Part shown: positions 9,901 through 42,040 of the stretch, one piece after another
Layout of the letters: every line of letters starts with the position of its first letter
How positions within the stretch are numbered: the first letter of the stretch is position 1
Virus record (IMG/VR): IMGVR_UViG_3300035670_000140
Span: 12,367-76,366 of that record
Direction: 5' to 3' (one strand)
DNA: 64,000 nucleotides
DNA from: a virus
Notes under the pieces: generated by a model
Database searches by the model: none
What the model was told of the DNA's origin: nothing
Seen by the model: the letters and a program-made list of their open reading frames with translations, nothing else
Translations under genes and position numbers: made by a program

Positions 9901-10616
9901 AATTAACAGCTACTGTTGCTGATATTAATACATTTTCTTCAACAGTGACGATGCTTATTGGTGGAGGTTTTGCTTCTGGTTCCACAAGAGAAACTGATTA
10001 CAGATTTTCTTATGTTGATTTCTTGATTGAAGAATATGTGTTAGAAAATTTTATAGTACAAAGAAGTAATAATGTTGTTAATTTAGATACTCCGTATAAT
10101 GAAGTTTTTAATAGAAACGGTTCTTCAATTACTGTTGATAATAAAAATCAATATTCTCCAGAAGGATTTGAAGATTATACTTTAGGAAACGCTGGTCTTA
10201 CTCTAGACATTTATGAATCCACAGCATTTGTTGATACTGGTATAAATTACGGTACTAGCATTAATGATGTAGATTTAATCTATTCTGGATTAACTATAAA
10301 AGACTTTGAAATTCGATCGAATTCAGCTTTTACTTCCAATGGGACTAGATTTAATTTTGGTATACCAACATATCAAACTCCAGTAACTATTTGTGCTGCT
10401 GGTGGATCTATTGGAAATACATTACAAGTTCAAAATACTGATTACTTTAGCAATCCATCTGTTACTGGAATCCCAGTACACTACTTGTTTACTGAATCTG
10501 GCACAGTTCTTTCATATACAGGATTAACACAAACAACATTTACAGGAATTTCTGTTGTTAGGGGGCCCGCATCTATTAACATAAATGATGATATTATTCC
10601 CTTCACAATTGTATAA
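918..10616 (+). CDS. gp7: Giant baseplate wedge initiator, gp7-like (3232 aa), with YHYH-like domain and repeated beta modules
   Basis: Located between gp6 and gp8. N-terminal 'ISSLIESQLPGFI...F..FVEKYYE' and 'LIKNISNFYKAKGT'; internal 'LQDSYFYQDYSYVVKS...HPAGF' typical of cyanophage gp7-like wedge proteins. Confidence 0.8.
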   Translation: MAPKKRRISSLIESQLPGFITTEYENFSKFVEKYYEHLESAGQPLDIISNLDKYRDINYYEENLLNQSTRLSSNILADSTTVTVDDATSFPEENGYIKIGSEVLFYQTRTDTQFLEVSRGVSGNTTLGDLYESSSFVTTAAGPHYTGDTVYNVSNLFLYALVKNFEQTYLGSFPEAYLKGEVDKRTLIKNISNFYKAKGTDRSVKFIFNSIIAKEPSDVPEIYNPKDFTLKSSTSDWTKDYSLKVKISNGDPNSLIGNTITQNLDDYDTSITFASAVVDNVIFIGNDGQDDLYQLILEPSTVNGRFEVYGRTTTTKTVPSSYSTGDRITVKSTLGFPKQGKLLIGDEVITYNDKNATQFIIDTRLGPIRNHNSNKTVYRYSTISSSSVRLITLGLIYNLSPINAAPYSSSGEMIQVSEPGFETLDPIAFDRNIGRTRWLINENPITNFAEIKGVESPFYSDVATVLEDEQYFYICSSSYPSENILVNTNYNVTLSDQKHLKLIRKQPITTTEVYPTTNRDVGIFIDGVPALGYKDNESIKYGKIVSSSITNKGVSYQAPPFVLINETPNKARAILSGSVVDSIEILTEEVFTEDPEVRITSGEGAVLRPVITNGSITSMDVLDPGQYYSSPPIIRIVDTLGKGNFAEYEAVLDPNGSIIEARKIAGGRFYTRGNTIVTVEPVGKNATARASIKEWVFNRYEKLKNNLDSDNGTVFASFDPSKNYGYAYVANPLNVRKRSYVSLTDFTSDDGSVHSPIVGYAYDGNPIYGPYGYEDPTDSSSNIVRLSSGYQIKNSRPSGPDTGRYPLGSFIDDYRWVPSVNSGKTELDQNNGRFCVTPDYPNGVYAYFITIDSSETPVFPYILGVNYYSLPVDSNYNSSISQDDIPRTLKSIRSDVSERNGSGFIGLIQDVKNGNITSGYVESSLPIHSPGNVVYLNNFETGGSGASVVVNEVTGKPISSIESIQTKANRISIQESAYLFDNDLITQTDADGAVLANGRLVGDVFNASELVLRNVTGQFNSIRPIDSSTQVYRLVLNIDSNFTVNSTLVLRNDDDEVIAQGIILETIVRQNSVKVKLTSGDFIVTEDYYLRSSNLSDTNRAEIISLESLSRDLTPFNVQENIAIVQTSQPHNLGVGDSVNIDVIPNDAVSETQYYVRKRLYQNAVALAPSHTSNIIDQGIGSADVLNSGRGYGVGTYTDVELIFQDVNKARTNIGKPGDLNNAKATIIVSNPGVNGSTVTSVIITSKGKGYRKGDVLTVDDDDLNRNVSDTSPQRLVLEVDHVGFAANNTVLKLSNVNNISQDDYLQISQEIVKVVSVDVIKKEVVVSRGQQNTVPLNHYNDAEVTLKDGFYRFDNNFRPFGSDMLKPFLISYDENTQNINVAFEYSVQNPQKLSISSTFFDESLPKKLVKFRSVDEANFKLEFSTDNSNFDTNPIIEIQKYYKYNFDVGHPSMGDTYLDFSSSSNYNIFTEEKEVSTIAPGNSGSFVSIKLGFGPAIASNTYQERKAVNFQNYFYFIKVSPDVDTGRSYLKIVDDPLAGTKNVIYTTANKFVYELDKTPSYDGSGVMSYTTTARNAIGQIKSVRVVNTGENYKFIPTVFGVSPAESNEAIVDPIWDPISKDVLGFNILEQGNNYSNPIIVMSDGDGIGFEYECLVELGKIRQIKVIKKGSSFTYKPTFKVVESNVKIYMESNNIGSPRNVKITNPGRGFNSDQSQLSTYKSPTTFVLRNISGRFFAGEKIIQPSTNATAIVAKDGWREGSNLLKVQKITGVFENGTVIKSTKDNGRFGTLYAQLSTEFKPEIKSYVDNVGYFTSDRGKLSNANQRLQDSYFYQDYSYVVKSKSSIEAWRNLIKETTHPAGFLMFGEMVIDSKAESQMPTEQQPISHFSVIELDPIQITSISTSKILTVVQYKLESLILEDGIGSVSVDTFDTSETQTFDVKLSPEFNGDFDPDTGQLIGNTSFTLINRANNTAVSLNNSQQLIVTLDGIFQEPGVSYTVSGSNIIFSAPPLGKRIVEGQEVEAVKFYGRAIKFKTPSLSSRYFRKVKSIANQFDGVQFEFDLYWEDDNSLVKTDPKENLIVALNSVVQKARLTEKEPFGNSYSIIRSEDPAVTDKIRFSKPPVDNEDLYGPPEEIPESLKNYEKCFIYSVGSYERLTINSNLYEYRFAGPYLIQDEVTGSIRKIDEPRYALVFIDGVLQRDVDAYQIVGPNITFTQNLKVYQDPNGDRITQDVNIILMYGRDVAKSLTFYDFEPYTFNNTLIVTLEGDDISSKFIKLYNFNSLSVNYFKQDDTIVGKVIRYTELNNDKIEILFQNPKNISLNQNELTLVNVSKNSQETVLAGNYTISYYYKTDSDGERVLERTIPSWLYGSQLGNVAWSNKNSMLGNLLPGDRILIDGENDFRTIISTPDTTKTKSYRDGDLVQNEYYANTKTTNYEGDTQGEGLSITANVNSFGQITTLNVSDVDWNQRDLDLYFEQGILLQPTAYEYYTTPEIHFIPVDGNGGGAKAEVIAYGGQILDVVLIDGGSGYTAPPKVVVSRRYKRIKELSRKVDSLTVLNIGTEISVKQEIVSDSQITITGAGDISGFISVATFGGFVAGINSDIDITEIVLPSPKIVRMTDKKFVSEFTVQSPTIEVYYIDRLIDSYVSVVIGGVYGFESSASIQTISVDELTSIFQIKANKAFRQEKADSVNGIGTFLDAPMDLNDVIAFVPNTERFPDTPSRLRIGREVIYYTNKKQDRFLGLTRGYQGSPLETHNAGDLVLHYPEFITIVSGGINTILSEGSVSSSDITVLEQKTSIQSIIEVKQFEESYNEIDVKLQVESPKTFQPKALPWIAIIPRDSYNIVTETYSSVSYITPINAPSAQVVGSVVSQVVTLNEREIQLTSDQQIQLDTSAVITSVSIGNIAATISSSSALVSSSYETSEITLSPQIQAVNTFTTFSTQIIENVQTSDLDIQSYSSTVVSLTSFAGNVTSLISRETVNDPFVMYHNTELTATVADINTFSSTVTMLIGGGFASGSTRETDYRFSYVDFLIEEYVLENFIVQRSNNVVNLDTPYNEVFNRNGSSITVDNKNQYSPEGFEDYTLGNAGLTLDIYESTAFVDTGINYGTSINDVDLIYSGLTIKDFEIRSNSAFTSNGTRFNFGIPTYQTPVTICAAGGSIGNTLQVQNTDYFSNPSVTGIPVHYLFTESGTVLSYTGLTQTTFTGISVVRGPASININDDIIPFTIV

Positions 10617-10625
10617 ATATAAATA
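10612..10625 (+). promoter_or_regulatory. Two overlapping T4-type late promoters (TATAAATA at 10612 and 10618) upstream of gp8
   Basis: Sequence tataaatataaata contains two exact matches to the gp55 late consensus; overlaps the gp7 stop. Confidence 0.75.
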
Positions 10626-10657: not shown

Positions 10658-12511
10658 ATGGCTGCTATTATCTCAGATAAATTTAGAATTTTTAATGCTA
10701 CCCAGTTTCTTGAGTCGCTGTCTGAGGGTTCTTCCGACACTGGCGCTGAACGTACTAGAATGTATTTCTTCGTAGGTCGTCCCCAGCGTTGGGATGCTTA
10801 CATTGAAATCTTCAATAAAAATGCTACTGCCTTTGTGGCAGGCAATGAAGTTTATGTAGGAGCTAATTATGCTTCTGCTACTTTCAAAGGAGTAATTAGA
10901 GAGGTTTACGAAAATTCTCTGTTACTTTATTCTATTGGTCCAGCGACTAATTCTTCTCCTGCTGTTGGTTCTACCCTAAAAGGGTGGAATGGAACTGCTG
11001 ACACTGGAGCAGAAGCAAGAACAGGTGTTTATCGCTATTCTACTGAAGACGTACCACCTGTTCCTCTCGATAACCAAACAGAAAAGTATGATATCTATGA
11101 TGATATCATTGCTGCCAAGAGAATTACAACTGATTTTGCTAGAGCTGTAATTCGTCGTTATAACTGGGATCCATCAGCAAACCCAATTTTTGATATGTGG
11201 AAACCTGATTACTCCTCTACTCCTGGTAGTGGTGGTCAGATTGGCAAACCTGCCGCTAATGGTGCTACCAACATTGCTGATGCTAAGTTCTATGTTCTAA
11301 ATTCTCAGTACGAAGTATTCAAGTGTCTCTATAACGGAGAAGATAAGGTTCCTGGTGGTGCTAACGTAACCAACGAACCAAAAACAACTCCTGCTGCTGG
11401 ACAAGGAACATATTCAGGCGGTATCTTTAAAGAAGATCCTGGTTCAACTGGAGATTATATTTGGAAGTACATGTACACCATCCCAACTGATGATGTACTT
11501 CGCTTCCTTTCAACAGATTTCATGCCAATTGTTCTTCCTACTGATGCTACAAGAATTGCTACAGAAGCTATTGCTACTGCCGACCCAGATGCCGTTGATG
11601 TTGTTTATGTAGAAAATGTAGGAGCTAATCTTCCAAACGGCACTCATTACTCACCAATTCTGGGCGATGGAACTGGTGGTAAAGTAGAAATTGTTGTTTC
11701 TGGTGGTGCTATTACTTCAGCTACAGTTATTGATAATGGTTCGGGATACACCTATGGTAGTATTGCCCTAAAGACTGGTGCTACAGTTGCTGGTGCTCCT
11801 TATGGTCTTTACAGTAATACTGGTCTCACATCAAGCGTTACTGTTGGTGCTACTGCTACTGGTGCTTTAGAAGTTATTATTCCTCCTCAGGGTGGACATG
11901 GTTCTAACTTTGAAGAAGAGCTTAATGCTAAGCGTGTCATGACAAACATTCGTTTGACATACGCTGAAGGATCTGGAGATTTCCCTGTTGATAACGACTT
12001 CCGTCGTATTGGTATTATCAAGGATCCATACGCTTATGGAACTACAACTTTTGCCACCACTTCAACATTGAATGGATTATATGCCATCAAGATCACTGGT
12101 GCTACAGCAGATTTCCAAATTGACGAAACAATTGAGCAAACAACTGCTAGTGGTGGCACTGCTTATGGTACTGTTGTTTCTTGGACATTAGATACTGGCA
12201 ACCCAGGTCCTGGTGGTAGCGGTGTTCTTAAGTACATCCAATCTCCTGCTCTACACACAGATGCTGGTGTTGTAAGACCTTTCGAAGCAAATGTTGCTAA
12301 CGCTATTACTGGTGCTAACTCGCTTGCTTCTGGTACTGTAAATACATCGGTAACTGGTGGAACAGTTCTCCAAGGTGTTGCTTTCAACTCTGGTCTAGCT
12401 ACTCCAGAAATTGACAACAACTCTGGTGAGATCATTTACGTTGAGAACAGAAGACTAATCACTCGTGCTGCTGACCAAATCGAAGATATCAAACTAGTTA
12501 TCGAGTTCTGA
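10658..12511 (+). CDS. gp8: Baseplate wedge subunit gp8
   Basis: Motifs 'MAAIISDKFRIFNATQF', 'VIRRYNW', 'FYVLNSQYEVFKCLYN', 'YIWKYMYTI', 'NDFRRIGIIKDP' and C-terminal 'SGEIIYVENR...DQIEDIKLVIEF'. Confidence 0.92.
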   Translation: MAAIISDKFRIFNATQFLESLSEGSSDTGAERTRMYFFVGRPQRWDAYIEIFNKNATAFVAGNEVYVGANYASATFKGVIREVYENSLLLYSIGPATNSSPAVGSTLKGWNGTADTGAEARTGVYRYSTEDVPPVPLDNQTEKYDIYDDIIAAKRITTDFARAVIRRYNWDPSANPIFDMWKPDYSSTPGSGGQIGKPAANGATNIADAKFYVLNSQYEVFKCLYNGEDKVPGGANVTNEPKTTPAAGQGTYSGGIFKEDPGSTGDYIWKYMYTIPTDDVLRFLSTDFMPIVLPTDATRIATEAIATADPDAVDVVYVENVGANLPNGTHYSPILGDGTGGKVEIVVSGGAITSATVIDNGSGYTYGSIALKTGATVAGAPYGLYSNTGLTSSVTVGATATGALEVIIPPQGGHGSNFEEELNAKRVMTNIRLTYAEGSGDFPVDNDFRRIGIIKDPYAYGTTTFATTSTLNGLYAIKITGATADFQIDETIEQTTASGGTAYGTVVSWTLDTGNPGPGGSGVLKYIQSPALHTDAGVVRPFEANVANAITGANSLASGTVNTSVTGGTVLQGVAFNSGLATPEIDNNSGEIIYVENRRLITRAADQIEDIKLVIEF

Positions 12512-31700: not shown

Positions 31701-33798
31701 CAACATTAGTATTTCTGGTCAATCTGGTAATACTTTACGTTTGATTACGTCAACTAATAACCCAACATCTTCTCCATCTCCAAGTGCTTTCTCAGCTGGT
31801 ATTATTGCTGACACAAGAAATAACACAGCAGATAGTTTAAGTGATGGAGGAACTCGTCACTTAGTAATGACGCTTAGAAACTTTGGTTCTGGTCTCGATG
31901 CCACAGGGGGCGGAGTAAGACAATTAGCGTTTACCGACAACGATAACTTATGGATTCGTGGTTCTGGATCCACACTAGATGAATTCGGAACTTGGGCTAA
32001 AGTTTGGACATCACTCAATGATGGTACTGGTAGTGGACTTGATGCTGATAGGTTAGCAGGTAGAAGAGGTGTATGGTATCAAAATGCTTTAAACATCAAC
32101 TATGGTTTATTAAGTGACAACAGGATACCAACATACTTAACTGCCAAGACATTTAATAATTCTGTAAAAATTAATACAACTACTAGTAATCCAAGATATA
32201 GAATTTATATTTCTGGTCAATTATTAACTGTTTCTCCTTTCCTTGCTGGTTTAACTGTAAACTTATACAATTCAAACTCACAGGGCGTTGGAACTATTTT
32301 AATCACAAATGTAGAAACATTTGATGATACAAACGATAATGCTAATGACTATACTATTATTACTGGATCTCTACAAACAGGTACTTTTACTGGTGCTCTG
32401 ACTATTGGTACTGCTAGCAATAGAGTAGAATTCCAAGATTACAGTTTAGATATCACTGGTTCATTTGAAACAGCAGAACTCTTTAGTGATACTGGAACAG
32501 CCAAGTTAAGACTTGGTAGAAAAGATGGCAATGCTTCATCTCCTGGCATTTTCTTCAATAGCAGTTCAGCAGCAGCAGATTTTAATGCTTCTATTGTAGC
32601 TTCTGGTGGTAATGGTACAACTGGAAGTGGATCATTAAACGTTACAGTTGGATCTGTAAACAGTCTTACTGTTAACAACAATATTGTTTGGAATGCTGGT
32701 AACGTAACTTTTGCTTCAAATAATGTTGCTAGTACAGCAGTTCTTCGTGATGCTTCTGGTAACTTCTCTGCTGGTACAATCACTGCTAGTGTGACTGGTG
32801 CTGCTTCCTTAAACGTATTGAAAGCAGGTGATTCAATGACAGGTGCTTTAAGCATTAATACTACTGGAGCAGCAGCAGACACTAATTACGAATTACAATT
32901 GTCAGGTTCTGCTGGTGGATGGGTTCAATTCCATAACAGATTAAGTGGAGGAGCTTGGAACCCATTAGTATCTACAGATGATAAAGGTATTATATTTACT
33001 AATGCTGCTGGAGCAGAACCAGGCACTTCTACTGGTAGATTTATTATTGCTCCTTGGTCAAATACAAGTGGTGGATTAGTTGTTTGGAATAATGGTAATG
33101 TAGGCATTAAGAGAAATAATCCGCTCATGCCGCTTGATGTTGGTCCTTCAGCGGGTCCATTCCAATCGGTAGCCAGATTTGGTAACAGCGGAAATGATAT
33201 TATTTTAACCCAAGGTAATGCCATAATTTCACATAATTGTTATTTTAATGGGGGGTGGATTACTACAGGTGCTGGCGGTGGATGTTTATTAGATCTACAA
33301 GGTGGTAGATTCTTATTCCAAACTACAAATACTACTTCATTAGCAGCAGGAGCTACTCCATCATTTAGCAAAACACCACTATCAATTTATAATTCTGGTA
33401 GAGTAACTGTCAATACAGGTACAGAAAATACTTCATATGATCTGTATGTAAATGGTAGCTTTGGTGCTATTTCTAAGTCGTTCGTTATTCCCCACCCATC
33501 CAAAGAAAATTATGAATTACGTTATGGTTCATTGGAAGGACCAGAGCACGGTGTATATGTTCGTGGTAAGTCATCTGATGTTATTGAGTTACCTGATTAT
33601 TGGACTGCTCTTGTCGATGAAAATACCATTACCGTTCAACTCACACCAATCGGAAACCATACATCATGGGTAGATAAGATTGAAGATAACAAGGTCTTCA
33701 TTGGTGGCGGTGAGGCATTCTACTTCGTTCAGGCAATGCGTAAGGATATTGATAAGTTAGAGGTTGAAGTTGAGTTACTTGTACAGGAGGAAGAGTGA
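25789..33798 (+). CDS. Long tail fibre/tailspike (2669 aa): split pectin-lyase-like beta-helix, two phycobiliprotein-like repeats, trimeric fibre motifs
   Basis: Beta-helix start 'VYVSQSIGDDQNDGRS...PVRTIKRA...GDYVEDNP...SIVGDNLR'; fibre motifs 'KIATTEYV', 'SGLDADLLDG', 'VLKAGDSMTGAL', 'LRDASGNFSAGTIT'; C-terminal 'KSFVIPHP...LEGPEHGVYVRG' domain. Confidence 0.85.
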   Translation: MSLEFNADKQIIKGSNPSIIGSSEFSVRSGTGANEKEVIRAILDSSTNLPRVGINRTGRRIERIEINQNQGGTGYTVTPSVLIDPPTLSGGVQALASAVVVNGSVVAIIVDNPGDGYATAPSITISGGNGAGAAATAFLDTVDFELDINGAIRTSTSIISDTARILNLDIENFVTPDANFRGPNLKTWANNTGIPWAPSVSLQVNDYRYFGQNLYQVLESGITGTTGPIHTDGQALNGTVLLKHIGYRVSDVNLPHYNQTGDSGVFPRSITPLLGDRSDKIATTEYVLNLATNDVGGRVYVSQSIGDDQNDGRSAAAPVRTIKRACQIASQTKGVKETVVISGGDYVEDNPISIPPDCSIVGDNLRLVIVRPANPKKHMFKFGDKNYVTGVTFRDQIDSAGDPVATWDFAMVFDDRQRIYYDVTSGGDFGRDFSIGHQIFGPPRIRVRFQTNTGLDALSVGESVRGINTGATGIVSAVTFDTTTGPQAYVNGTIDVDVTGGSFNNGETFQYEIGTAPNIDTYEFVSVEITSIRAEGEVVDTGTDLSTALPISRIDFSQQGTPLVTEGGFGYDGNPEDLGGIILYTNILLGRQNIHDFKEGQEILISGMPTSSPDLSFLNGKTRIYKVLDDADGRSRRFVIPKKVALTDSNFIPPSVASVRSYSYYVTLTLLNSPNKFDVASSISRRFQDACNLIRNNIDFIVDEAYLQILAEFSNFTPPNVSKCRRDIGHFLNAIIRDLEYGSNYNVIEAAKYYVENTTQIGYVDNEITETVRAFDIARRLAIIAMRNWRTGNGTISDPIYTPVYSSLQRFFDNTVITTTAGSPACADVASAIDTLGYLFVTVLTNNTADRFLDASYLIARNDDFIASEALGYTKATYPSLGLSVPDETKCKRDIKYILDALRRDLSLGGNAGIVTAAEAYFTGAQLTGIPTSELAATRFAFQKAKDLAILAMRNWKTGDGTGPTYTRVYETTISLFTDSTITIDPSTPICANVAAAITTSFTLLDDILAGTILPGATTKTYGTLYNPTITYPDNTIYDADNKRVTPRVTWDELPYIEASPYTQNSSIISFLGGSGALVDGSKVAQPNCPFPGLEPDGSATYPNQGKSMVASAFTIVSFGGIGYKVVNDGYTQLVSVFVIFCADGVLAESGGYASITNSATNFGIYALRARGYNNFAYSFDIGTITNVSTTPTGRTIFTIDGLGREPLEHYIVKIDGYSNVNPDIEYYIETVGAVTVGPPFSAQVTLESGTGGGAEFIKDATGQAVSTSIGEFSGKTIRLHRPSIVNSSSHTWEFAGSGTNYNALPENGGVKVEAYEQVNEDYGRVYVSGTDELGDFKVGTFAKIENRTGAITFTGTVTISEVEFLKLKGGDVVVTGFDASNTLGGANSTDSKLPTQKAVKDYITNNLGPYINKPYSTNAVPRALVELTDSGKISIDQIPALRPFNVYTVPNQAARLSIEGALAGDIAIQQDTNQSFILNNDLTSLFATFPVDTDLVFNTGDIFTGTPSTGQIQSTEYRQGVVYTINITNPGSGYTAPPTITISGGNPQVGAVSATATCTIANGQVVTVTITEFNGYLGGKGYTTPPTVTFSAPGGAGITATGAALIESRLYGSIVNNIKILDTDTIQSSNSPAETVDVSRVVNTSSSVNGNWVSLSTTQIAASDITSGVIDTSRLAFNSAAANSFTFLRGDKSYAPVVQSLKGAENRYFAILAQQANIGSSQLVFTTNSNTLKGHEVVNNVTGIAANTNITGVVTAAGLTTIQINNPLTSAITAGTVIEFRRGSSPLIFESSYTQGNFVDSIIIVNGGSGFTNGQYFDVSLSGGSGSGLKANIIVSSNAVTEILVTSGGSNYTGDFNITLSPTEIGGGAGLVLAAKISTVNRNYANTSIDINRVTDQTISADPFGTVGVGRFLKSQFFLGDAGNGSIQLKTGADSGLDADLLDGAQGSYYLNASNLNSGTVSVDRLSGTYNISISGQSGNTLRLITSTNNPTSSPSPSAFSAGIIADTRNNTADSLSDGGTRHLVMTLRNFGSGLDATGGGVRQLAFTDNDNLWIRGSGSTLDEFGTWAKVWTSLNDGTGSGLDADRLAGRRGVWYQNALNINYGLLSDNRIPTYLTAKTFNNSVKINTTTSNPRYRIYISGQLLTVSPFLAGLTVNLYNSNSQGVGTILITNVETFDDTNDNANDYTIITGSLQTGTFTGALTIGTASNRVEFQDYSLDITGSFETAELFSDTGTAKLRLGRKDGNASSPGIFFNSSSAAADFNASIVASGGNGTTGSGSLNVTVGSVNSLTVNNNIVWNAGNVTFASNNVASTAVLRDASGNFSAGTITASVTGAASLNVLKAGDSMTGALSINTTGAAADTNYELQLSGSAGGWVQFHNRLSGGAWNPLVSTDDKGIIFTNAAGAEPGTSTGRFIIAPWSNTSGGLVVWNNGNVGIKRNNPLMPLDVGPSAGPFQSVARFGNSGNDIILTQGNAIISHNCYFNGGWITTGAGGGCLLDLQGGRFLFQTTNTTSLAAGATPSFSKTPLSIYNSGRVTVNTGTENTSYDLYVNGSFGAISKSFVIPHPSKENYELRYGSLEGPEHGVYVRGKSSDVIELPDYWTALVDENTITVQLTPIGNHTSWVDKIEDNKVFIGGGEAFYFVQAMRKDIDKLEVEVELLVQEEE

Positions 33799-34469
33799 TG
33801 GCTATAGGTTATGGAAATACACTGCCAGGTTTAGATAATATAGTTCTTTGTGTTGATGCAGCAAATCCACAAATTTATGTGGCTGGAAATACTACATTTA
33901 CTTTAAACAGTGGTCTTTCTGCTCCATCAAATGGTTATTTTACTTTTGATGGAGCAGACGATAGCATTGGAGTACAAACACAATATTTAAATACTTCATA
34001 TACTGGGAAAACTATAATTGTTGCTGCTTGGATGGATTCTGATGTTATTTTTACATCAAGTTATTATAGAGCTATGATAGGTAGTATTGGAGATAGGAAT
34101 GTTAACTTTTACATTAGAACTAGAGGACCAAATCCAAATGAATATGATTTACATTTTAGCACAGGACCTTCTGGTGCTTATTACGGAACCTTAAGTGCTG
34201 GTATCACTTTAAATACTCAGCAATGGTATATTTTTGCAATCACACAATCCTCATCAGATGGTGCCCATAATTATTATATGAATGGATCTTTAATATCAAC
34301 AAGTCCTTCTACTTGGTATTCTTATGGTCAGAATTCCACAGAATTTTTGGGAAGAGCTGACAACTTTTGGAAGGGTAGAATTGGTTATTGGTATGTTTAC
34401 AATAAAGCTTTTACTACCCAAGAAATTAAAACTCATTACGATTTAACCAAAGGGAGGTTTGGACTCTAA
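33798..34469 (+). CDS. LamG/concanavalin A-like lectin domain protein 1
   Basis: TGATG overlap, with AGGAGG upstream of the ATG at 33798; 'LCVDAAN', 'FTFDGADD', 'YYMNG', 'YNKAFTTQEI...KGRFGL'. Confidence 0.8.
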   Translation: MAIGYGNTLPGLDNIVLCVDAANPQIYVAGNTTFTLNSGLSAPSNGYFTFDGADDSIGVQTQYLNTSYTGKTIIVAAWMDSDVIFTSSYYRAMIGSIGDRNVNFYIRTRGPNPNEYDLHFSTGPSGAYYGTLSAGITLNTQQWYIFAITQSSSDGAHNYYMNGSLISTSPSTWYSYGQNSTEFLGRADNFWKGRIGYWYVYNKAFTTQEIKTHYDLTKGRFGL

Positions 34470-35164
34470 TGGGATTATCTCACAACTACCAAATTCCTAC
34501 TAATGGATTAAAATTATTTGTCGATGAGACTTTAAATCCATTAGGAACTTCTACAGGATTTCAGGGAATTGCTTATGGAGACAATCCGTATAGTGGTACA
34601 TTTTCTGTTCCCCCAACTAGTGTAGAATGGGCAAGAAATATAACTAATATTACAGTAAGTGTTGTTGTATATAAATATGCTACTTCAGTAGGATACGCAA
34701 CACACCCAATCAACATGTGGGGAACTGGTGGCAATGGTTTGGATACTGCTGGATTAGTATTATATAATTTTGGCAATTATCAAGGAAATGGAGGTGATGG
34801 CGATATATCTTTTTATATGGGAGATTTTAATGGCTCTGTCGGTGGTTGGAGAGGACATGGAGTTGCTGGAGGTTCGACCAAAATACAAGTTGGAGAATAT
34901 TATCATGTAGTTTTTCAGTTGGGTGGTGGTATTGGTTGGACTTGGAGAAATGGGCAAAAAGTAGAACAACAAAGCTATCCCAGACCAATAGCAAATAGTA
35001 CTATTGCTGGGTATGGCCAAAATAATTTAAATATTTACGGTCCTTTTCAACAAGATTTTGGTGTAATTAAAAGCGGTCTTTTCTACAATAGAACATGTAG
35101 TGACGAAGAAATTTTATCTCAATTAAATTATTTTAAAAGAAGATATCCAATCTCTAACAGATAA
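34469..35164 (+). CDS. LamG/concanavalin A-like lectin domain protein 2 (divergent)
   Basis: TAATG overlap; 'TNGLKLFVD', 'EYYHVVF', 'WRNG', 'FYNRTCSDEEI...KRRY'. Confidence 0.7.
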   Translation: MGLSHNYQIPTNGLKLFVDETLNPLGTSTGFQGIAYGDNPYSGTFSVPPTSVEWARNITNITVSVVVYKYATSVGYATHPINMWGTGGNGLDTAGLVLYNFGNYQGNGGDGDISFYMGDFNGSVGGWRGHGVAGGSTKIQVGEYYHVVFQLGGGIGWTWRNGQKVEQQSYPRPIANSTIAGYGQNNLNIYGPFQQDFGVIKSGLFYNRTCSDEEILSQLNYFKRRYPISNR

Positions 35165-35176
35165 AGGAGAATTTAA

Positions 35177-35980
35177 ATGGGCTGTTTTTCTGGAGCAAAT
35201 AATTTAATAGAATATCCAGTTTCTGTTATTAATATTAGTAACGTTGTTACTAATGGTCTTCAAATGTATTGGGATGCCGCTAGAAATTTTTCATATGTTT
35301 CTGGCAATTCTCAATGGAATGATATTAGTGGAAATTTAAACAAACCATTCACATTAAGAAGTAATGGGTATGGAAATAATGGAGAGCAAGCTCCATCAGC
35401 AATTGTTTTTTCTGGCGAAGGAGGTGGATCTTTATTATTTGATGGTATAAATGATTTTGGAACTTTAGGAACATCTGCTTCTCCAACAGCAAATTCTCCT
35501 TATACAGCAACATCTAATATTACAGTATGTGTTTGGATGAAAACTACTGACGGAGGAGATAAAGGATTTTGGTCACATTGTAATGGAGGACCAGTAAATT
35601 TATCTTATGGAATTGCTGGAGGAAAAATGAGATATTGGTATTATACCGCTCCTTGGCAAACATTAGATAGTAATGCTTCTATTAATGACGGAAACTGGAA
35701 ATTTTTAGTTTGGGCAAAATCTGGAACTAATATGAAACAATATATAAATGGCTCTTTGGATAGAGATACTACTTTAGTTGGAGATGTTACTGGTCCTCTT
35801 TATAGTTTAGGTTCTCGCTGGGGTCCCTGTAATTCCGATAGTTATGGAGCTGGCACAAACAGTTCTGGAGGAAGTATATTTACAGGAAATTTAGCGATTA
35901 TGATGGCTTATAATAGACAACTTTCTCAAACAGAAGTTAGTCAAAATTTTCAAAGTTTTAAGACTAGATTTGGATTATAA
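35177..35980 (+). CDS. LamG/concanavalin A-like lectin domain protein 3
   Basis: AAGGAG RBS; 'VVTNGLQMYWDAA...SY...WNDISGN', 'FDGINDF', 'YINGSL', 'YNRQLSQTEVSQNF...RFGL'. Confidence 0.85.
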   Translation: MGCFSGANNLIEYPVSVINISNVVTNGLQMYWDAARNFSYVSGNSQWNDISGNLNKPFTLRSNGYGNNGEQAPSAIVFSGEGGGSLLFDGINDFGTLGTSASPTANSPYTATSNITVCVWMKTTDGGDKGFWSHCNGGPVNLSYGIAGGKMRYWYYTAPWQTLDSNASINDGNWKFLVWAKSGTNMKQYINGSLDRDTTLVGDVTGPLYSLGSRWGPCNSDSYGAGTNSSGGSIFTGNLAIMMAYNRQLSQTEVSQNFQSFKTRFGL

Positions 35981-35983
35981 ATA
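35976..35983 (+). promoter_or_regulatory. Late promoter (TATAAATA) opening the fibre/enzyme operon
   Basis: Exact T4 late consensus, 22 nt before the ATG at 36006. Confidence 0.75.
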
Positions 35984-36005
35984 CTCAATAAAAGGCTTGT
36001 AACAA

Positions 36006-38009
36006 ATGGCGAATTCTGATAAGGATATCCTTATAACGCCTAATAAAGGCACTACATCATTACCAGAAGTTAGTTTTGTCGGTCAAGTAAACTCACCGAT
36101 TAGACTTCGTGTGCTTGATGATAACACGTTATCCTTTGAGGGTTCCGCTGGTCAATTATTTTCAATCAATAATAATTTAACGTCAGGAACTATTTTTGCT
36201 GCTTCTGATGTTTCTGGTGTTCCTGGAATAGCATTGGATGCTAATGGAACTCTAAGGTTATCTCCCTTTTCTGGTGGAGTTGCTGTTGGTGGCAATGGAT
36301 ATTTTACAGCAACTGCTAAATTACATGTAAGATCTTCGTCAACTAGCGATGGTGCGGGTCCAATATATCTAGAAAGAACTTCTACTAATCAAGAATGCGC
36401 CATTAACTGGTTAACTAGTGGTGTTAGAAAATGGTGGTTGGGAACTGATAATGATTCTACTGATAACTTCTTAGGAATTTATAAGTGGGATGGAACTGGA
36501 GCAGGATATATACTCTCTTTTGTAGATAATAATCTTGCTATTAATGGAAGAACTCCAACTGCTAGACTCAATGTTTATGGTGATCACAACACAACTCAAT
36601 TACGATTAACGCTCCCAGCAGCAAATAATGGTAGCGGAGCTGGTATTGCTCATTTACAAGCATGGTTGTCTGAACCAGGGCAAACTTGGAATGGCGGTGG
36701 TATTGGTGTTAACGTAACCAATTATTATAGAGGTCTTAATGGATCTGATGCTAACATAGGTACGTTTTTAAATGGTTATACAAACGTTAATAATGATACT
36801 TACTTTCCAAGATTTAATACTAATTTAGGTCAAGCCTATATTAGGATGTATCCTGGTAGCGGTAGCGATGATTTTGCTTTTATTGATTTTATAACATCTA
36901 CCAGAACTGGAACATTTTGGCCAACAACCATGAGGGTAAGAAATGGTTGTGTTTCTATGGGAGGTATTGATATTAATGCTAGCTATAGATTAAATGTAAA
37001 CGGTAATATTAATTTTGTTGGCGATTTATATAAAAATGGTGTTCTGTATGAATCACTACCAGCTCAAAGTAGTTCCACAAGAGGAGCTGTATTAAGATCT
37101 AACGGCACAGCAGCTTATTGGGATAATGACACAGCAGATACATTCACTGGTTCTACTGTCGTTCGTGGTTATACTCTAGGTGGATACCAGAACGCTACTG
37201 CTTGGTTAAATGTTAATAGAACTGACCATGCTAGCGACACAACATATAATTTGGGGGATCAAGTTTCCACTCTTGATGCTTATACTGCTGCTTGTTCCAA
37301 TGGAACATATGCTTATGTATTACATCCAGGAGGAAACTGGTCAGCACAAGGTAGAGAAATTAACCGCTTTAACATGTTAACTGATACTAATGCCGATATT
37401 TCAACACAAATGCTCACAACTAAAGATAGAAACTCTTTGATGAGAAGTAAATTTATTTATGCTTATTCGTTTGGAAATAATCAACCAGAAAGATTTAATA
37501 TTTTAACAGAAACTCCATCACTATTTTTATCCGCATCAGATCAAAATGGTTCTACTGGAGCAAACCCAGCATGTGGATCTGGTGAACTTAGGGGATGGCA
37601 TATGGTTGCTGGCACTAGAGGAAATTATTTAGAATTTACAACAGAGTCTTGGAATTCTTGGTCACCACCAGGACCAGATGGAACTAATAAAACAATTAGT
37701 ACATACACAGGGTTTATGTATTGGAATACTGGTGGGGGATATTCCACAGGCAATGCTTGGAGTAAGCGCCATGATTATAATGGATCTCAATACTTAACTA
37801 TTGGTAAACCAGGGGCAACTGGAGAAGAATCTCTACATACTGGAGAGGTAAAAGGATACATGGTAGGTATGTATAACGGTGCTCAGAATAATCAAGGAGG
37901 TATTATGAATTATGCCAACAATACATTTAGCTTTGTTTCTAGTGTAAATAGTGTTGGACCTGGCGGAAGAGCATCTGCTGCTGGTATTGAATACGGAAGA
38001 GGAGTATAA
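36006..38009 (+). CDS. Fibre-like virion protein with C-terminal beta-propeller-like repeat domain (667 aa)
   Basis: N-terminal 'LSFEGSAGQLFSI...DVSGVP'; fibre motifs 'TAKLHV', 'PTARLNVYG', 'YRLNVNGNINFVGDLYKNG'; C-terminal blade-like repeats (RGYTLGG, YAYVLHPGG, YAYSFG, RGWHMVAG, FMYWNTGG, KGYMVG). Confidence 0.7.
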   Translation: MANSDKDILITPNKGTTSLPEVSFVGQVNSPIRLRVLDDNTLSFEGSAGQLFSINNNLTSGTIFAASDVSGVPGIALDANGTLRLSPFSGGVAVGGNGYFTATAKLHVRSSSTSDGAGPIYLERTSTNQECAINWLTSGVRKWWLGTDNDSTDNFLGIYKWDGTGAGYILSFVDNNLAINGRTPTARLNVYGDHNTTQLRLTLPAANNGSGAGIAHLQAWLSEPGQTWNGGGIGVNVTNYYRGLNGSDANIGTFLNGYTNVNNDTYFPRFNTNLGQAYIRMYPGSGSDDFAFIDFITSTRTGTFWPTTMRVRNGCVSMGGIDINASYRLNVNGNINFVGDLYKNGVLYESLPAQSSSTRGAVLRSNGTAAYWDNDTADTFTGSTVVRGYTLGGYQNATAWLNVNRTDHASDTTYNLGDQVSTLDAYTAACSNGTYAYVLHPGGNWSAQGREINRFNMLTDTNADISTQMLTTKDRNSLMRSKFIYAYSFGNNQPERFNILTETPSLFLSASDQNGSTGANPACGSGELRGWHMVAGTRGNYLEFTTESWNSWSPPGPDGTNKTISTYTGFMYWNTGGGYSTGNAWSKRHDYNGSQYLTIGKPGATGEESLHTGEVKGYMVGMYNGAQNNQGGIMNYANNTFSFVSSVNSVGPGGRASAAGIEYGRGV

Positions 38010-38012
38010 AAA

Positions 38013-38771
38013 ATGGAAAATATATTTTATATTGTCAAAACAACAGACGATCTTTATAAAATCCCAGATCTAAAAATCTATTTTACCAACTATGGTTGGA
38101 CTGTAGTATCTTTTGATAAGAAATATAGCGACTTATTTGTGTCTTCGAAGTTTAAATATTTTGAATTGTCATATGATGATATTTTAGGATTTAAAGCATT
38201 TGGTGACATGAGATCAGAAATAAAAGTAATGGCAGATGATGAGATTGAACAACCATACATTCCATTAGGAACAGAAAGTATACGAGTAAAAATTCCTGTT
38301 ACTGAACATCGTTATAATTGTATTTTAAATTCTATGAAATTGTTTGCTACAATTTTATTAGAAGAAGAATTTGATGATAGATTTAATAAATTAAAATTAA
38401 ATTTTTCTGAATTAGAAAAACAAACTTGGGAACAGCAATTACAAGAAGTTAAAAATTACGAGAATAAATTAGAAACTCCATTACTGAACAGTATATCTAA
38501 AGCAAAAAATATTACTACAGATGAATTAGTTAATTTGATAGTCCAAAAAAAATTAGAATATGATCAAAAATCATCTGAATTATTTGTTAAATTAATTGAA
38601 TTAAAAACTACTTTCAAAGATGTCAATGAGATAGAAAACATGAATTTATTGTACGCTAAATATTTCAACATACAATTATCTTTTACTCAGGAATATAAAG
38701 AATCCCATCCAGAAATTTTTAATGAGAATGGTGGATTTATTGTTCCATTAGGTGTTGGTTACAATTTCTAG
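38013..38771 (+). CDS. Hypothetical protein, tail-fibre-assembly chaperone-like C-terminal half (252 aa)
   Basis: 'ELEKQTWEQQLQEV...TPLLNSISKAKNITTDELVNLIVQK' resembles a motif seen in proteins encoded just downstream of phage tail fibres; 3 nt from the upstream stop. Confidence 0.55.
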   Translation: MENIFYIVKTTDDLYKIPDLKIYFTNYGWTVVSFDKKYSDLFVSSKFKYFELSYDDILGFKAFGDMRSEIKVMADDEIEQPYIPLGTESIRVKIPVTEHRYNCILNSMKLFATILLEEEFDDRFNKLKLNFSELEKQTWEQQLQEVKNYENKLETPLLNSISKAKNITTDELVNLIVQKKLEYDQKSSELFVKLIELKTTFKDVNEIENMNLLYAKYFNIQLSFTQEYKESHPEIFNENGGFIVPLGVGYNF

Positions 38772-38779
38772 TATCTATT

Positions 38780-39535
38780 ATGGCATTATCTGAATCTGAA
38801 CTACACGATTTTCTAGATGAAAATAATTCATCTATGAGCAATTATCAAATTGATCATTTTGTTTTAAGATCACAAGTAACTGATTTTAGACAAGTAAAGC
38901 AATCTCTTCTAGAATTAGAAGGAAGAAAAGATAGCTTGTATCAAACTAAAGTTAATCTAAAAAGAAAAAAAATTACTAGAGATAAAATAGAATATGAAAT
39001 CAAAAATGCTACTGACGAATTTCAGAAAAGATTTTTAGAAGTTGATTTAGAAGAAGTAAATAAAGATATCTATTTTATAGAAAGAAGATTAACAGTACAA
39101 GAAAAAGAATATAATTATTTTGCCGAAAAAATTTATTCTAGATTCAACAGTAAAGAAGAATTAGAAAAATTTTGTAATAATCCAGAAGAAGAACACAAAT
39201 ATTGGATTGCTCGTATGGGCAAACAAGCAGCTATAGATATGATTTCTCTTGGTAGAATTAGCGTTGGTAATATGGATTCTATTGCTATGATGAGCGAAGA
39301 AGATCAAATTCAAACTCTCAAAGTAGCAATTCAATATTCTGGTTTGATGAATGTAGGTATTAATAAGCTACAGCAAGAAATGATTCCATATCTCAAGCAA
39401 GTAGAAAATAATTCTAATAGATTACTTCCTACGTTTGATGGAATTGAAGATAATTTAAATATCAATTTAGTGAATCAATTACAAAATGAAAAGCAAAAAC
39501 TTCAGCTTACCGATAAACCCAAAATCATCGAGTGA
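38780..39535 (+). CDS. Hypothetical helical/coiled-coil protein (251 aa)
   Basis: Long open frame, charged and heptad-rich; 'MSNYQIDHFV...RQVKQSLLEL', 'YWIARMGKQAAIDMIS.GRI..GN'. Confidence 0.7.
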   Translation: MALSESELHDFLDENNSSMSNYQIDHFVLRSQVTDFRQVKQSLLELEGRKDSLYQTKVNLKRKKITRDKIEYEIKNATDEFQKRFLEVDLEEVNKDIYFIERRLTVQEKEYNYFAEKIYSRFNSKEELEKFCNNPEEEHKYWIARMGKQAAIDMISLGRISVGNMDSIAMMSEEDQIQTLKVAIQYSGLMNVGINKLQQEMIPYLKQVENNSNRLLPTFDGIEDNLNINLVNQLQNEKQKLQLTDKPKIIE

Positions 39536-41165
39536 GTTTGTACACGAAACATTTATACCATTTTTAAAAGAACATAAAGATTCTATTTTCGATCTTTACT
39601 TCACTTGTAGAATGCCTCCCTTTGATCAAGATGCTATGGGAGATGTATTTGTTTCAGATCCTAGACAAACAACTTTTGATGCTCTGTACATCTCAAAAGA
39701 ATCTGGTATTCCTTTGTCTGCTACATTTAATAACATTTATGTAAGACCATCTCAAAAGAATCTTGATCTATTCATAGAAAATTTTAAAACCCTGTACGAC
39801 AAAGGAATTCGTATAGTTACTTTACCCCATACTATTTGGGTTTCTACTGGGCAAATACAGAAAGAGTTTCCAGAACTCTACATTAAGAATACTATTCTTA
39901 GAGAAGTTCGTCAAGCAAACGAAATTGTTTCTTTAGCGAAAGCTGGGTTTCATTATATCAATCTCGATAGAGATCTGATGAGGGATCGTGATGCTTTGTT
40001 AGAGATCAAAGAAGCAAAGGATTATTGTGAGTCCATAAACAAACCAATAAAATTATCATTGTTGGTTAATGAGACTTGCTGGGGTGGATGTCCAATTATG
40101 GTAGAACACTATCACTATAACAATACCAGAAAAGATGAAGACCCTCAATTTTTTAATGATCCTATTAGTAGAAATTCTTGCTCTAAGTGGGAAATACTAG
40201 ACCCATCTCATTCTCTCAAAGCAGCAAACCTTCCTCCTTGGAAAAAGGATTGGGAAGAGTTTATTGATCTTGGTATTGATGTATTTAAACTTCATGGAAG
40301 AGAATCCATGATGAGATTAAAAGAATCGATGGATCTTATTGAAAGATGGGATAACAATGAAGAGTTAATGTTCCCTCTGTTTAATGAATATATTGAAAAT
40401 GTTTCTTTACAAGAACGTCCAATCGATATCTGGAGAGAAAAAATTAAGACTTGTAAGTTTGATTGTTGGAAATGTAATTATTGTGAGTCAGTTGTAGAAT
40501 CTAGATTAAAAAAACAAAACAGATTACTTCATCCATTGGTAGAGAATATTATTAAATCTATTGACAACTCAGCTAACCAGAAAGATTATTCTATTCCAGG
40601 TCTCAGTTCTAACAGAGTAAGAACTTTACTTAATTCTATTTGTTCTGATAATAGTATTAAGTATTTGGAAGTGGGTGCTTATCTTGGTAGTACATTCTGT
40701 GCTGCTATAGAAAACAATAATATCAAATCTTATGCTGTTGATAATTGGAAGACTCCCGACCTAAAACCATTTGAAAATAAATTAGTTTTTGCTGGCATTG
40801 CTTCCATAGAAGATTTTAAAAATAATGTAAGTTCAACTAAATCAGGATCAACTGTAAAAATTTTAAATAAAACATGTTTAAAGTTAATTGATGGAGATAT
40901 AGAAGATAAGATTAATTTTGTATTTTATGATGGAGATCATGAATACAATGAACAACTAAAAGCTTTAAACGTCATCAAAGATTTTGTTGATAGTACATTT
41001 GTTTTGATATTAGATGATGCTAATTTCGAAGGTGTTGTTTCTTCTGCTAATCAGTTTATTCTAGATAATAATTTCAAAGTTTTGTTTGAAAGAAAGCTTT
41101 TAAACAAAGTGGAAGATCCTTCAATGTGGTGGAATGGTTTGTATATACTTGTTTTACAAAAATGA
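39486..41165 (+). CDS. U32-family (Fe-S hydroxylase-type) domain fused to class I SAM methyltransferase (Methyltransf_24-like)
   Basis: U32-like motifs 'INLDRDLMRD', 'LLVNETCWGGCP', 'GIDVFKLHGRE', plus C-x3-C-x2-C-x2-C (CKFDCWKCNYC). C-terminal 'YLEVGAYLGST', 'FVFYDGDH', 'LILDD'. Confidence 0.8.
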   Translation: MKSKNFSLPINPKSSSEFVHETFIPFLKEHKDSIFDLYFTCRMPPFDQDAMGDVFVSDPRQTTFDALYISKESGIPLSATFNNIYVRPSQKNLDLFIENFKTLYDKGIRIVTLPHTIWVSTGQIQKEFPELYIKNTILREVRQANEIVSLAKAGFHYINLDRDLMRDRDALLEIKEAKDYCESINKPIKLSLLVNETCWGGCPIMVEHYHYNNTRKDEDPQFFNDPISRNSCSKWEILDPSHSLKAANLPPWKKDWEEFIDLGIDVFKLHGRESMMRLKESMDLIERWDNNEELMFPLFNEYIENVSLQERPIDIWREKIKTCKFDCWKCNYCESVVESRLKKQNRLLHPLVENIIKSIDNSANQKDYSIPGLSSNRVRTLLNSICSDNSIKYLEVGAYLGSTFCAAIENNNIKSYAVDNWKTPDLKPFENKLVFAGIASIEDFKNNVSSTKSGSTVKILNKTCLKLIDGDIEDKINFVFYDGDHEYNEQLKALNVIKDFVDSTFVLILDDANFEGVVSSANQFILDNNFKVLFERKLLNKVEDPSMWWNGLYILVLQK

Positions 41166-41788
41166 AATTATTTGAAATTTTCCCCAACCCAATCTTTATG
41201 GAAACTTGTAATTTTCAAAAAGATGTAAAAAATATTATTCAAAATTTAAATGTCGAGTTTAATCAAAATGAAGTAAGTAATAAATTATTTCATTATGGCA
41301 ATGACTTAAATCAATCGGTTTTATATTTGCCAGTGTTTGAACGATTTAAATTATGGATAGAAAAATGTTGCTATCAATATGTAACAGAAATACTTGGATA
41401 TCATTTAGATGATAAAATTATTGTTACAGACAGTTGGATAAACAAATGTGATGAAGGTGGTTATCAATATCCTCATTATCATACTAATTCATATATCTCA
41501 GGAACATACTATATTAACATACAAGATGGTCATGCTCCTATAGTTTTTAGGCATGATGATAGTTCTACACATATTCCTAAGCAGTCAATTACATTGAAGA
41601 AGCAATCATCGACAAAATATAATTCAGATGTTTTATTTCACCCAAATCCAGGTGAATTATATCTTTGGCAATCTCATCTAACCCACGGGGTACTTGACAA
41701 TAACCTAGATGATAGGTTATCATTATCTATGAATTTCATGCCTTCTGTGGTTTCTAACTACAAGTATGGGTATAAAATCTCGGTATAA
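41162..41788 (+). CDS. 2OG-Fe(II) oxygenase (TIGR02466/2OG-FeII_Oxy_5-like)
   Basis: ATGA overlap puts the start at 41162; 'IFPNPI', 'SWIN', 'PHYHTNSYISGTYY', 'PGELYLWQSHLTHGV', 'RLSLSMN' (HxH...H...R). Confidence 0.88.
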   Translation: MKLFEIFPNPIFMETCNFQKDVKNIIQNLNVEFNQNEVSNKLFHYGNDLNQSVLYLPVFERFKLWIEKCCYQYVTEILGYHLDDKIIVTDSWINKCDEGGYQYPHYHTNSYISGTYYINIQDGHAPIVFRHDDSSTHIPKQSITLKKQSSTKYNSDVLFHPNPGELYLWQSHLTHGVLDNNLDDRLSLSMNFMPSVVSNYKYGYKISV

Positions 41789-41791
41789 ATA
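41784..41791 (+). promoter_or_regulatory. Late promoter (TATAAATA)
   Basis: Exact consensus overlapping the oxygenase stop, upstream of the 59-aa ORF. Confidence 0.7.
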
Positions 41792-41821
41792 TTAACGTTA
41801 TTATTTTTACACAATAAGCAT

Positions 41822-42001
41822 ATGGACACTGAAACACTAAAGAAAAATTTCGAAGATCAACTAGCATCAGCTGATAGACAAATTGCTGAACTAGAAGATA
41901 ATCTAGCAAAAGCAAAAGAGTATCGCCTCAAGCTCCAAGGTGGATTAGAAACCTTAGCACTTCTCAATCCACCAGAAGAAGAAACAACGACCGAAGAATG
42001 A
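41822..42001 (+). CDS. Small acidic coiled-coil protein (59 aa; not in ORF track)
   Basis: Translated by hand: MDTETLKKNFEDQLASADRQIAELEDNLAKAKEYRLKLQGGLETLALLNPPEEETTTEE*. Has its own late promoter and a downstream terminator. Confidence 0.8.
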   Translation: MDTETLKKNFEDQLASADRQIAELEDNLAKAKEYRLKLQGGLETLALLNPPEEETTTEE

Positions 42002-42003
42002 TC

Positions 42004-42040
42004 AAATCCCTACTTCCTAAATAGAAGTAGGGATTTTTTG
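42004..42040 (+). terminator. Rho-independent terminator with CTAAATA loop
   Basis: Perfect 13-bp stem aaatccctacttc / gaagtagggattt, 7-nt loop, T-run at the 3' end. Confidence 0.85.

Follow-up and report, generated by a model that had tools for sequence, protein, structure and literature searches.

A conserved cyanophage cassette pairs a fibre-like protein with a predicted U32-like barrel fused to an O-methyltransferase

Introduction

U32 enzymes are iron–sulfur (Fe-S), prephenate-dependent and O2-independent hydroxylases of aromatic rings, and the twelve U32 subfamilies are mostly uncharacterised (PMC10990095, PMC6599085, PMC5727448). The family is described as almost exclusively bacterial or archaeal (PMC10990095). 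In the known pathways, these PF01136 barrel enzymes hydroxylate first, and O-methylation or a comparable step comes next. Here we analyse a gene cassette in which one predicted protein may combine both activities. The cassette lies in a 64,000-nucleotide (nt) stretch of DNA, hereafter the window, that covers positions 12,367 to 76,366 of IMG/VR virus record IMGVR_UViG_3300035670_000140, a 76-kb sequence from a T4-like cyanomyovirus. It encodes a fibre-like protein of 667 amino acids (aa), two small proteins of 252 and 251 aa, and a 559-aa protein with a U32-like N-terminal domain and a methyltransferase (MT) C-terminal domain (U32-MT).

The nearest functional analogy to this enzyme is the yrrM-yrrN-yrrO system of Bacillus subtilis (TrmR plus TrhP1/TrhP2), which combines a U32 hydroxylase and a COMT-like O-methyltransferase (OMT) in the tRNA ho5U to mo5U pathway. 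The B. subtilis enzymes are encoded by separate genes, act on RNA and have neither fibre nor helical partners, whereas the phage protein is a fusion.

A large part of oceanic Prochlorococcus and Synechococcus is killed by marine T4-like cyanophages, whose machinery for host recognition is poorly understood. The cassette genes are annotated as ‘hypothetical’ in GenBank, and have been since 2010, when the T4-GC clusters were established; our literature search found no paper linking U32 enzymes with cyanophages. An original prediction, made from the letters of the window, had described a self-contained late operon of a propeller-tipped fibre, chaperone-like proteins, a U32/methyltransferase fusion and a 2-oxoglutarate (2OG) oxygenase, and had proposed that these enzymes hydroxylate and then methylate a virion part.

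Results

Conservation of the cassette

Four genes, members of clusters T4-GC351-354, make up the core of the cassette. Their open reading frames (ORFs) and the domains of the enzyme are arranged as follows:

36006-38009, plus strand: 667-aa fibre-like gene (ORF)
38013-38771, plus strand: 252-aa gene (T4-GC352, phrog_1604; ORF, low GC)
38780-39535, plus strand: 251-aa gene (T4-GC353, phrog_1409; ORF)
39486-41165, plus strand: 559-aa U32-MT gene (ORF)
39486-40520, plus strand: predicted U32-like N-domain of the 559-aa protein (AlphaFold2 (AF2) model and structure match)
40581-41165, plus strand: O-methyltransferase C-domain of the 559-aa protein (PF13578 and fold match)

Below we call the 252- and 251-aa proteins p252 and p251, and name the first gene the propeller gene after the fold that its C-terminal half looks like. 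The propeller and p252 genes are separated by 3 nt and the p252 and p251 genes by 8 nt, while the p251 and U32-MT genes overlap by 50 nt. GC content is 0.25-0.27 at 38000-39500 and 0.26-0.28 at 40500-41500, compared with 0.34-0.40 in the surroundings. The ORFs, gaps, overlaps, promoter motif, terminator and AT-rich stretches of the original prediction were all found where it had placed them.

We observed that T4-GC351-354 are a conserved cassette. U32-MT is encoded in 126 GenBank phage records (77 Synechococcus, 38 Cyanophage, 8 Prochlorococcus and 3 Ralstonia) and p251 in 126 with an identical breakdown; a comparison of record counts shows that the propeller domain, present in 123 cyanophage records (77/38/8), matches the cyanophage subset of the other two. 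Since gp13 is found in ~464 cyanophage records, roughly one-quarter of sequenced cyanomyoviruses carry the module. Metagenomes contain over 1,700 of its proteins.

Synteny was assessed in 80 IMG/VR loci. The propeller gene was present in 51/51 loci with enough upstream sequence. The p251 gene adjoined or overlapped the enzyme gene in 68/73 loci, and was displaced by an insertion in three and off the contig in two. The gene order propeller, 252-type, 251-type, U32-MT is kept across genomes. The proposed co-occurrence as a cassette thus held for the C-terminal half of the 667-aa protein and for the 251- and 559-aa proteins. The 252-type gene keeps its slot and diverges fast: it was found between the propeller and p251 genes in 47 loci, at 22-40% identity, and by tblastn in 41 phage records only.

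The cassette moves horizontally as an accessory module of T4-like cyanophages. The gp13 closest to that of the window, at 75% identity, belongs to S-PM2, which lacks the cassette at that site; there, three small virion structural genes are followed by a homologue of the 59-aa ORF that precedes gp13 in the window, and then by gp13. Because S-PM2 has this order without the cassette, the five genes at 36006-41788 represent an insertion, and the 59-aa ORF is part of the neck region. The gene after the cassette block in P-SSM4 is denV. P-HM1 and P-HM2 were isolated together, and T4-GC351-354 are listed with the genes that just one of the two carries (Sullivan et al. 2010, PMC3037559 Table S5); the coordinates given are those of P-HM2.

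The members of the cassette differ in pace and diverge in step. Conservation in the neighbourhood peaks in the U32-like domain (median identity 72%; gp13, 54%), and the propeller (median 32%) and p252 evolve fastest. Among mutually related loci, with identities measured solely against the window, divergence of the propeller correlates with that of the MT domain (rho 0.75) and divergence of the MT domain with that of the U32-like domain (rho 0.66), while correlation with gp13 is absent (rho ~0).

Mobility as a block raises the alternative that these genes are unrelated passengers, the enzyme being an auxiliary metabolic gene that stands behind a fibre gene. The block does move as a unit, cyanomyovirus genomes are mosaic and hold many morons, and the 2OG gene shows how loose the linkage of neighbours can be. 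We nonetheless consider hitch-hiking quite unlikely. Co-occurrence persists down to ~25% propeller identity, after relocation, and despite insertions of 4-8 kb between the p251 and enzyme genes; by the counts, no record appears to hold the propeller, p251 or the enzyme without the others; and the whole block has one late-promoter core and conserved gene overlaps.

Transcription

Three signals in the window bear on when the cassette is expressed:

35976-35983, plus strand: T4-type late promoter core TATAAATA, with 22 nt between it and the ATG of the 667-aa gene
41784-41791, plus strand: second TATAAATA, ahead of the 59-aa ORF
42004-42040, no strand assigned: strong hairpin terminator (13-14 bp stem plus T-run) that closes the late unit before gp13

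The TATAAATA octamer is not enriched in the window (6 observed, 8.7 expected), and because it is not over-represented its count proves nothing alone; its significance lies in position and conservation, not in number. In 40/51 related loci, the propeller gene is preceded by an ATAAATA core at a distance of 24-31 nt. Within 80 nt upstream of the inner genes, the same core was absent from every locus (0/47 for the 252-type gene, 0/71 for the 251-type gene, 0/80 for U32-MT and 0/33 for the 2OG gene).

Expression of the P-HM2 orthologues in Prochlorococcus MED4 agrees with this arrangement: PHM2_098 is classed as ‘Late (E)’ and PHM2_099-101 as ‘Late (D)’ (PMC5082946, supplementary file 3). The cassette forms one late transcription unit, with expression data that come from the P-HM2 orthologues. 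The predicted late timing is supported: within the cassette the core stands solely before the fibre gene, and the P-HM2 orthologues are Late.

All six copies of TATAAATA in the window lie on the coding strand. Elsewhere they include an overlapping tandem pair at 10612/10618 (10612-10625) and a copy at 34670-34677 within the gene for a 231-aa protein. The hairpin at 42004-42036 scored on both strands and may act bidirectionally; no minus-strand gene faces the terminator.

The N-terminal barrel

We found no U32 match for the 559-aa protein in Pfam, NCBIfam or PDB sequence searches, phmmer included. Structure gave a different answer. The AF2 model of the 559-aa protein, built on a family alignment, has a predicted local distance difference test (pLDDT) score of 91.4, and its residues 1-278 align structurally with Mk0906, a U32 protein (PDB 5D88), at Z 17.1 and a root-mean-square deviation (rmsd) of 3.2 Å (227/247 residues aligned). 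This was the top match of the 48,161 representative PDB chains searched with the model, and the only non-methyltransferase among the 50 best matches listed, the lowest of which has Z 12.8. Whole-model Foldseek matches (pyruvate kinase, PRMT5) were discarded as generic barrel-plus-Rossmann hits with rmsd >20 Å.

At the profile level, hhalign of the 61-sequence family against UbiU/UbiV/RlhA/TrhP returned a weak match (probability 37%, P 3.6e-4, 108 co-linear columns; the template profile holds 4 sequences only) that runs over strands 3-6. Because of the top superposition on 5D88 and this weak but co-linear profile match, we read the modelled N-domain as a deeply divergent U32-like barrel. The U32 assignment of the original prediction is thus upheld by structure (5D88, Z 17.1), finds a weak echo in the profile–profile comparison, and is not recovered from Pfam, NCBIfam or PDB sequence matches.

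Seven cysteines are invariant across the 61 relatives: C198, C202 and C232, and the cluster C323-x3-C327-x2-C330-x2-C333. The first three appear from the alignment to follow a conserved Glu after a strand equivalent to that of canonical U32 enzymes, with different spacing. The second, a C-x3-C-x2-C-x2-C cluster, is additional to the canonical U32 set, in which four conserved cysteines bind a [4Fe-4S] cluster. By analogy with U32 hydroxylases, with which the phage domain shares its barrel fold, we infer that the barrel binds an Fe-S cluster and has hydroxylase activity. It differs from canonical U32 proteins in being fused to an O-methyltransferase, encoded by phages and paired with a phage-specific helical protein.

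The true start of U32-MT is the upstream one, at 39486. The overlap with the p251 gene encodes strand 1 of the barrel, homology to other phages begins at residue 2-6, and P-HM2 annotates the long form. The GenBank starts of U32-MT in S-CAM4 (L001:7148-8731) and P-SSM4 (L002:7124-8689) are ~30-50 codons too late; they leave out the barrel's opening strand and helix, and both homology and the model favour the upstream start.

Relatives in other genomes

The three Ralstonia records provide a second lineage. In the jumbo phages RP12 and RP31, a 251-type gene stands directly upstream of an unfused U32-like gene, and the neighbourhood of the pair holds genes for a collagen-like tail fibre and for a virion structural protein. 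In RP31 the U32-like gene is directly followed by ORF135 (L003:7031-8071), which encodes a DUF401/CitMHS-like protein of the membrane-transporter type, an unusual gene for a phage.

A more distant U32-like group of 410-450 aa, ~25-28% identical, occurs in metagenome-assembled genomes (MAGs). No Pfam U32 domain was found in 20 distant relatives of the 559-aa protein. Three longer U32-like proteins have N-terminal extensions, which were considered as possible p251 fusions and proved unrelated to p251.

Three distant U32-like copies with seven cysteines are encoded on one complete Dehalogenimonas sp. chromosome (CP139473.1; L086, L089, L092). Two of the copies each come immediately after a reductive dehalogenase gene, and one of these two copies is followed by a B12-binding radical-SAM/PqqD protein; the third copy adjoins a DAHP synthase gene. 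The Dehalogenimonas U32-like protein may be an uncharacterised accessory of organohalide respiration. An Arcobacteraceae MAG contig (L097:83-3384) carries two U32-like genes of the distant group in tandem, recalling the UbiU/UbiV and TrhP1/TrhP2 pairs. On a contig binned in a Thaumarchaeota MAG (L100:6665-9323), a Gly_rich_2 protein is encoded two genes upstream of a distant U32-like gene; the contig is tightly packed on one strand after ORFs of 1355 and 604 aa, looks viral, and may hold a remote echo of the fibre–enzyme pairing.

The methyltransferase domain

The C-domain is a class I cation-dependent O-methyltransferase. PF13578 (Methyltransf_24) matches residues 394-511 with 31.5 bits against a cut-off of 26.3, and it was the sole Pfam match on this domain, with no hit to the TrmR-type family (Methyltransf_3). 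Residues 366-559 matched structures of MeT1, TomG, SafC, SpnH, TrmR and COMT in a tie at Z 14.8-15.9. Positions E395/G397/G401, D419, D482, D510/D511 and N513 are conserved at ≥90%, and probably represent S-adenosylmethionine (SAM) motif I, an acidic ribose-binding residue and the Asp/Asp/Asn triad for the metal. The Rossmann OMT fold, SAM motif I and the Asp/Asp/Asn triad are shared with known cation-dependent OMTs, to which the phage domain is ~10-14% identical and from which it differs in its fusion to a U32-like barrel. The methyltransferase half of the predicted fusion is thus established by PF13578 together with the OMT fold. Because the enzyme is a U32-like barrel fused to an O-methyltransferase, the proposed hydroxylate-then-methylate chemistry is also coherent.

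What the enzyme acts on is a separate matter, and RNA is one candidate. The fusion could be a single-chain analogue of TrhP plus TrmR that hydroxylates the C5 of a pyrimidine in tRNA or rRNA and O-methylates it afterwards (ho5U to mo5U or similar); this would tune late translation, and the tie to the fibre gene would be merely genetic. The sole characterised macromolecular U32 substrates are tRNA U34 and 23S rRNA C2501 (PMC6599085, PMC5727448). TrmR structures match the MT domain with Z 14.8-15.2, level with the best matches, and some homologues are named ‘O-methyltransferase YrrM’ by JGI. In Bacillus, yrrM adjoins the U32 genes yrrN and yrrO, which also speaks for RNA. We nevertheless regard an RNA target as unlikely. 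An RNA enzyme would not be expected to co-occur one-for-one with a propeller protein and a helical partner specific to phages; the MT domain belongs to PF13578 rather than the TrmR type, and sugar and catechol OMTs match it equally well. In addition, the P-HM2 orthologues are expressed late, the window has no tRNA genes and no Rfam matches, and the Ralstonia version occurs without an MT domain.

The same structural matches bring in a second candidate. The enzyme might hydroxylate and O-methylate a quinone, an aromatic metabolite or a sugar-linked group, and the product may be a ligand or cofactor bound by the propeller protein. UbiU/V provide a precedent (PMC10990095), with an analogy in UbiU/V plus UbiG in ubiquinone synthesis, and the top structural matches MeT1, TomG, SafC and SpnH act on small molecules or sugars. 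Cellular homologues adjoin reductive dehalogenases, the B12-radical-SAM/PqqD protein and DAHP synthase, the last belonging to the shikimate route to prephenate. These homologues are, however, only ~25-28% identical and share no partners with the phage enzyme, and the cassette contains no other biosynthetic genes. Small-molecule tailoring also leaves the strict coupling to p251 and the propeller unexplained unless the propeller binds the product, and we consider it improbable.

Partner proteins

The N-terminal half of the 667-aa protein is rich in Gly, Ser, Asn and Thr and is lineage-specific. Residues 42-108 have 57% identity to the ‘baseplate wedge subunit’ of S-SKS1. The C-terminal half (~residues 340-667) is the cyanophage ‘sericin-like’ domain, T4-GC351 (phrog_1417, E 3e-58, residues 357-664), for which we found no Pfam or PDB sequence match. 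An atlas model of the 667-aa protein reached template-modelling (TM) scores of 0.75-0.81 to Kelch propellers and to phage Gly_rich_2, sericin-like and propeller-lectin clusters, with a whole-protein pLDDT of 0.61. The C-terminal half of the model looks like a beta-propeller, which we treat as a lead because the confidence of the model is modest. The original prediction of a propeller-tipped fibre therefore fits the atlas model and has no counterpart in a sequence-level propeller match. The low conservation of the propeller would be as expected for a part that contacts the host.

The small proteins had been described as chaperone-like, for which we found no specific evidence. p252 matches phrog_1604 (E 7e-38) and has no Pfam or PDB match. 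The AF2 model of p251 (pLDDT 84) is all-helical with long hairpins; Foldseek against the PDB returned no specific relative (best E 0.16), and VIA returned generic coiled-coil hairpins only, with Z up to 9.8, within helical noise. BFVD matches are solely uncharacterised phage proteins, Ralstonia RP12 included (TM 0.72-0.83). p251 is thus a predicted helical-hairpin protein with no known relative. A chorismate-mutase-like reading of p251 found no support in the structure searches, and comparison of p251 with p252 showed that they are not paralogues of each other.

The T4 fibre helpers gp57A and gp38 resemble p252 and p251 in being small, late and encoded beside a fibre gene. p251 has neither sequence kinship nor specific fold kinship to these phage fibre chaperones, and its likeness to prefoldin-type chaperones is a generic coiled-coil one (Z 9.0, within noise). 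Unlike fibre chaperones, p251 tracks the enzyme rather than the fibre, the Ralstonia phages without a propeller included.

Neighbouring genes

Two further genes lie between the enzyme gene and the terminator:

41162-41788, plus strand: 2OG-Fe(II) oxygenase gene, counted from its ATG (PF13759/TIGR02466)
41822-42001, plus strand: 59-aa ORF (phrog_580), neck region

The 2OG oxygenase is identified by PF13759 (65.9 bits, cut-off 27) and TIGR02466 (64.5 bits, cut-off 62.5), and its gene shares an ATGA overlap with the 559-aa gene at 41162-41165. It directly follows the MT domain in 24/68 loci; in 8 it has another position in the locus, and 36 lack it. In S-CAM4 it stands upstream of the propeller gene, and in P-SSM4 it is 3 kb off. 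The 2OG oxygenase is an optional, loosely linked add-on to the cassette. The original prediction had included it in the operon, but it is not a constant member, being the immediate neighbour of the enzyme in just 24 of the 68 loci.

The 59-aa ORF had likewise been counted with the unit. Its homologue stands directly before gp13 in S-PM2, where the cassette is absent, and this arrangement assigns it to the neck region instead. An ATAAATA core precedes the 59-aa ORF in 27/56 loci.

Upstream of the cassette, at 33795-35980 of the window, three successive genes encode small proteins of 224, 231 and 267 aa with Laminin_G_3/concanavalin-like domains. They are placed between the gene for a 2669-aa giant protein and the cassette. 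S-PM2 likewise has three genes there, all annotated as virion structural proteins.

Discussion

We tentatively favour the reading that the cassette enzyme tailors the co-inherited propeller/fibre protein with p251 as its partner, while giving it somewhat less than an even chance. The barrel would hydroxylate an aromatic ring by Fe-S, prephenate-dependent and O2-independent chemistry, by analogy with UbiU/V, RlhA and TrhP. The MT domain would then O-methylate the product, so that an aromatic C-H becomes C-OH and then C-OCH3, in an order of reactions that we presume. The target would be the propeller/fibre protein itself or something made for it, and p251 would serve as an adaptor or a partner subunit of the enzyme. 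The propeller/fibre protein is the likeliest target because the propeller, p251 and the enzyme share their gains, losses and divergence and are produced late along with virion parts. Strict co-inheritance, late co-transcription and the conserved p251/enzyme overlap likewise tie the job of the enzyme to the propeller protein. The Ralstonia jumbo phages, with a p251–U32 pair among fibre and virion genes, support tailoring of a fibre from a second lineage.

Several points weigh against this. On the side of the barrel, PF01136 did not match the N-domain alone at E up to 10, a 61-sequence profile found no U32 match among PDB sequences, and the cysteine pattern is C-x3-C...C in place of the canonical C-x6-C-x16-C. 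A six-frame scan of the whole 76-kb record with PF01136 also returned nothing, in a scan in which 8 control genomes did score. On the side of the substrate, the characterised U32 substrates are, to our knowledge, all RNA bases or a quinone and never a protein, and the modelled fold matches of the MT domain fail to separate protein, RNA, sugar and catechol substrates. The 667-aa protein is a putative virion part, and the three published cyanomyovirus virion proteomes (S-SM1, S-PM2 and Syn9) appear to come from cassette-free phages. On the side of linkage, gene order in T4-like structural regions tends to be kept in any case. The RP12/RP31 pair lacks both the methyltransferase domain and the propeller. 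Finally, no cassette partners were found beside the distant cellular U32-like genes of Dehalogenimonas and other MAGs; these homologues stand alone, and because the partners are missing there, the cellular contexts tell us little on the phage system.

A more specific version of fibre tailoring is that the fusion, recruited by p251, puts a methoxy group on a Tyr, Trp or His of the propeller; we think this rather doubtful. In that case the 2OG oxygenase might, by analogy with TrhP/TrhO and UbiUV/UbiIHF, be an O2-dependent alternative hydroxylase for day-time infection.

The enzyme is a divergent U32-like/OMT fusion with phage-specific partners and not a categorically new system. The cassette couples a rapidly evolving propeller to the best-conserved gene nearby, an unrecognised branch of U32 fused to an O-methyltransferase. 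P-HM1, without the cassette, and P-HM2, with it, form a natural pair for direct comparison. If the target is RNA or a metabolite, the cassette would represent a new auxiliary function. If the target is the fibre tip, this would be a novel form of virion tailoring, and U32 chemistry would gain a further class of substrate. Methoxylation of the propeller would make this the first protein substrate for the U32 family and the first phage U32 enzyme – and would mean that about a quarter of sequenced marine cyanomyoviruses carry an enzymatically tailored receptor-binding tip.

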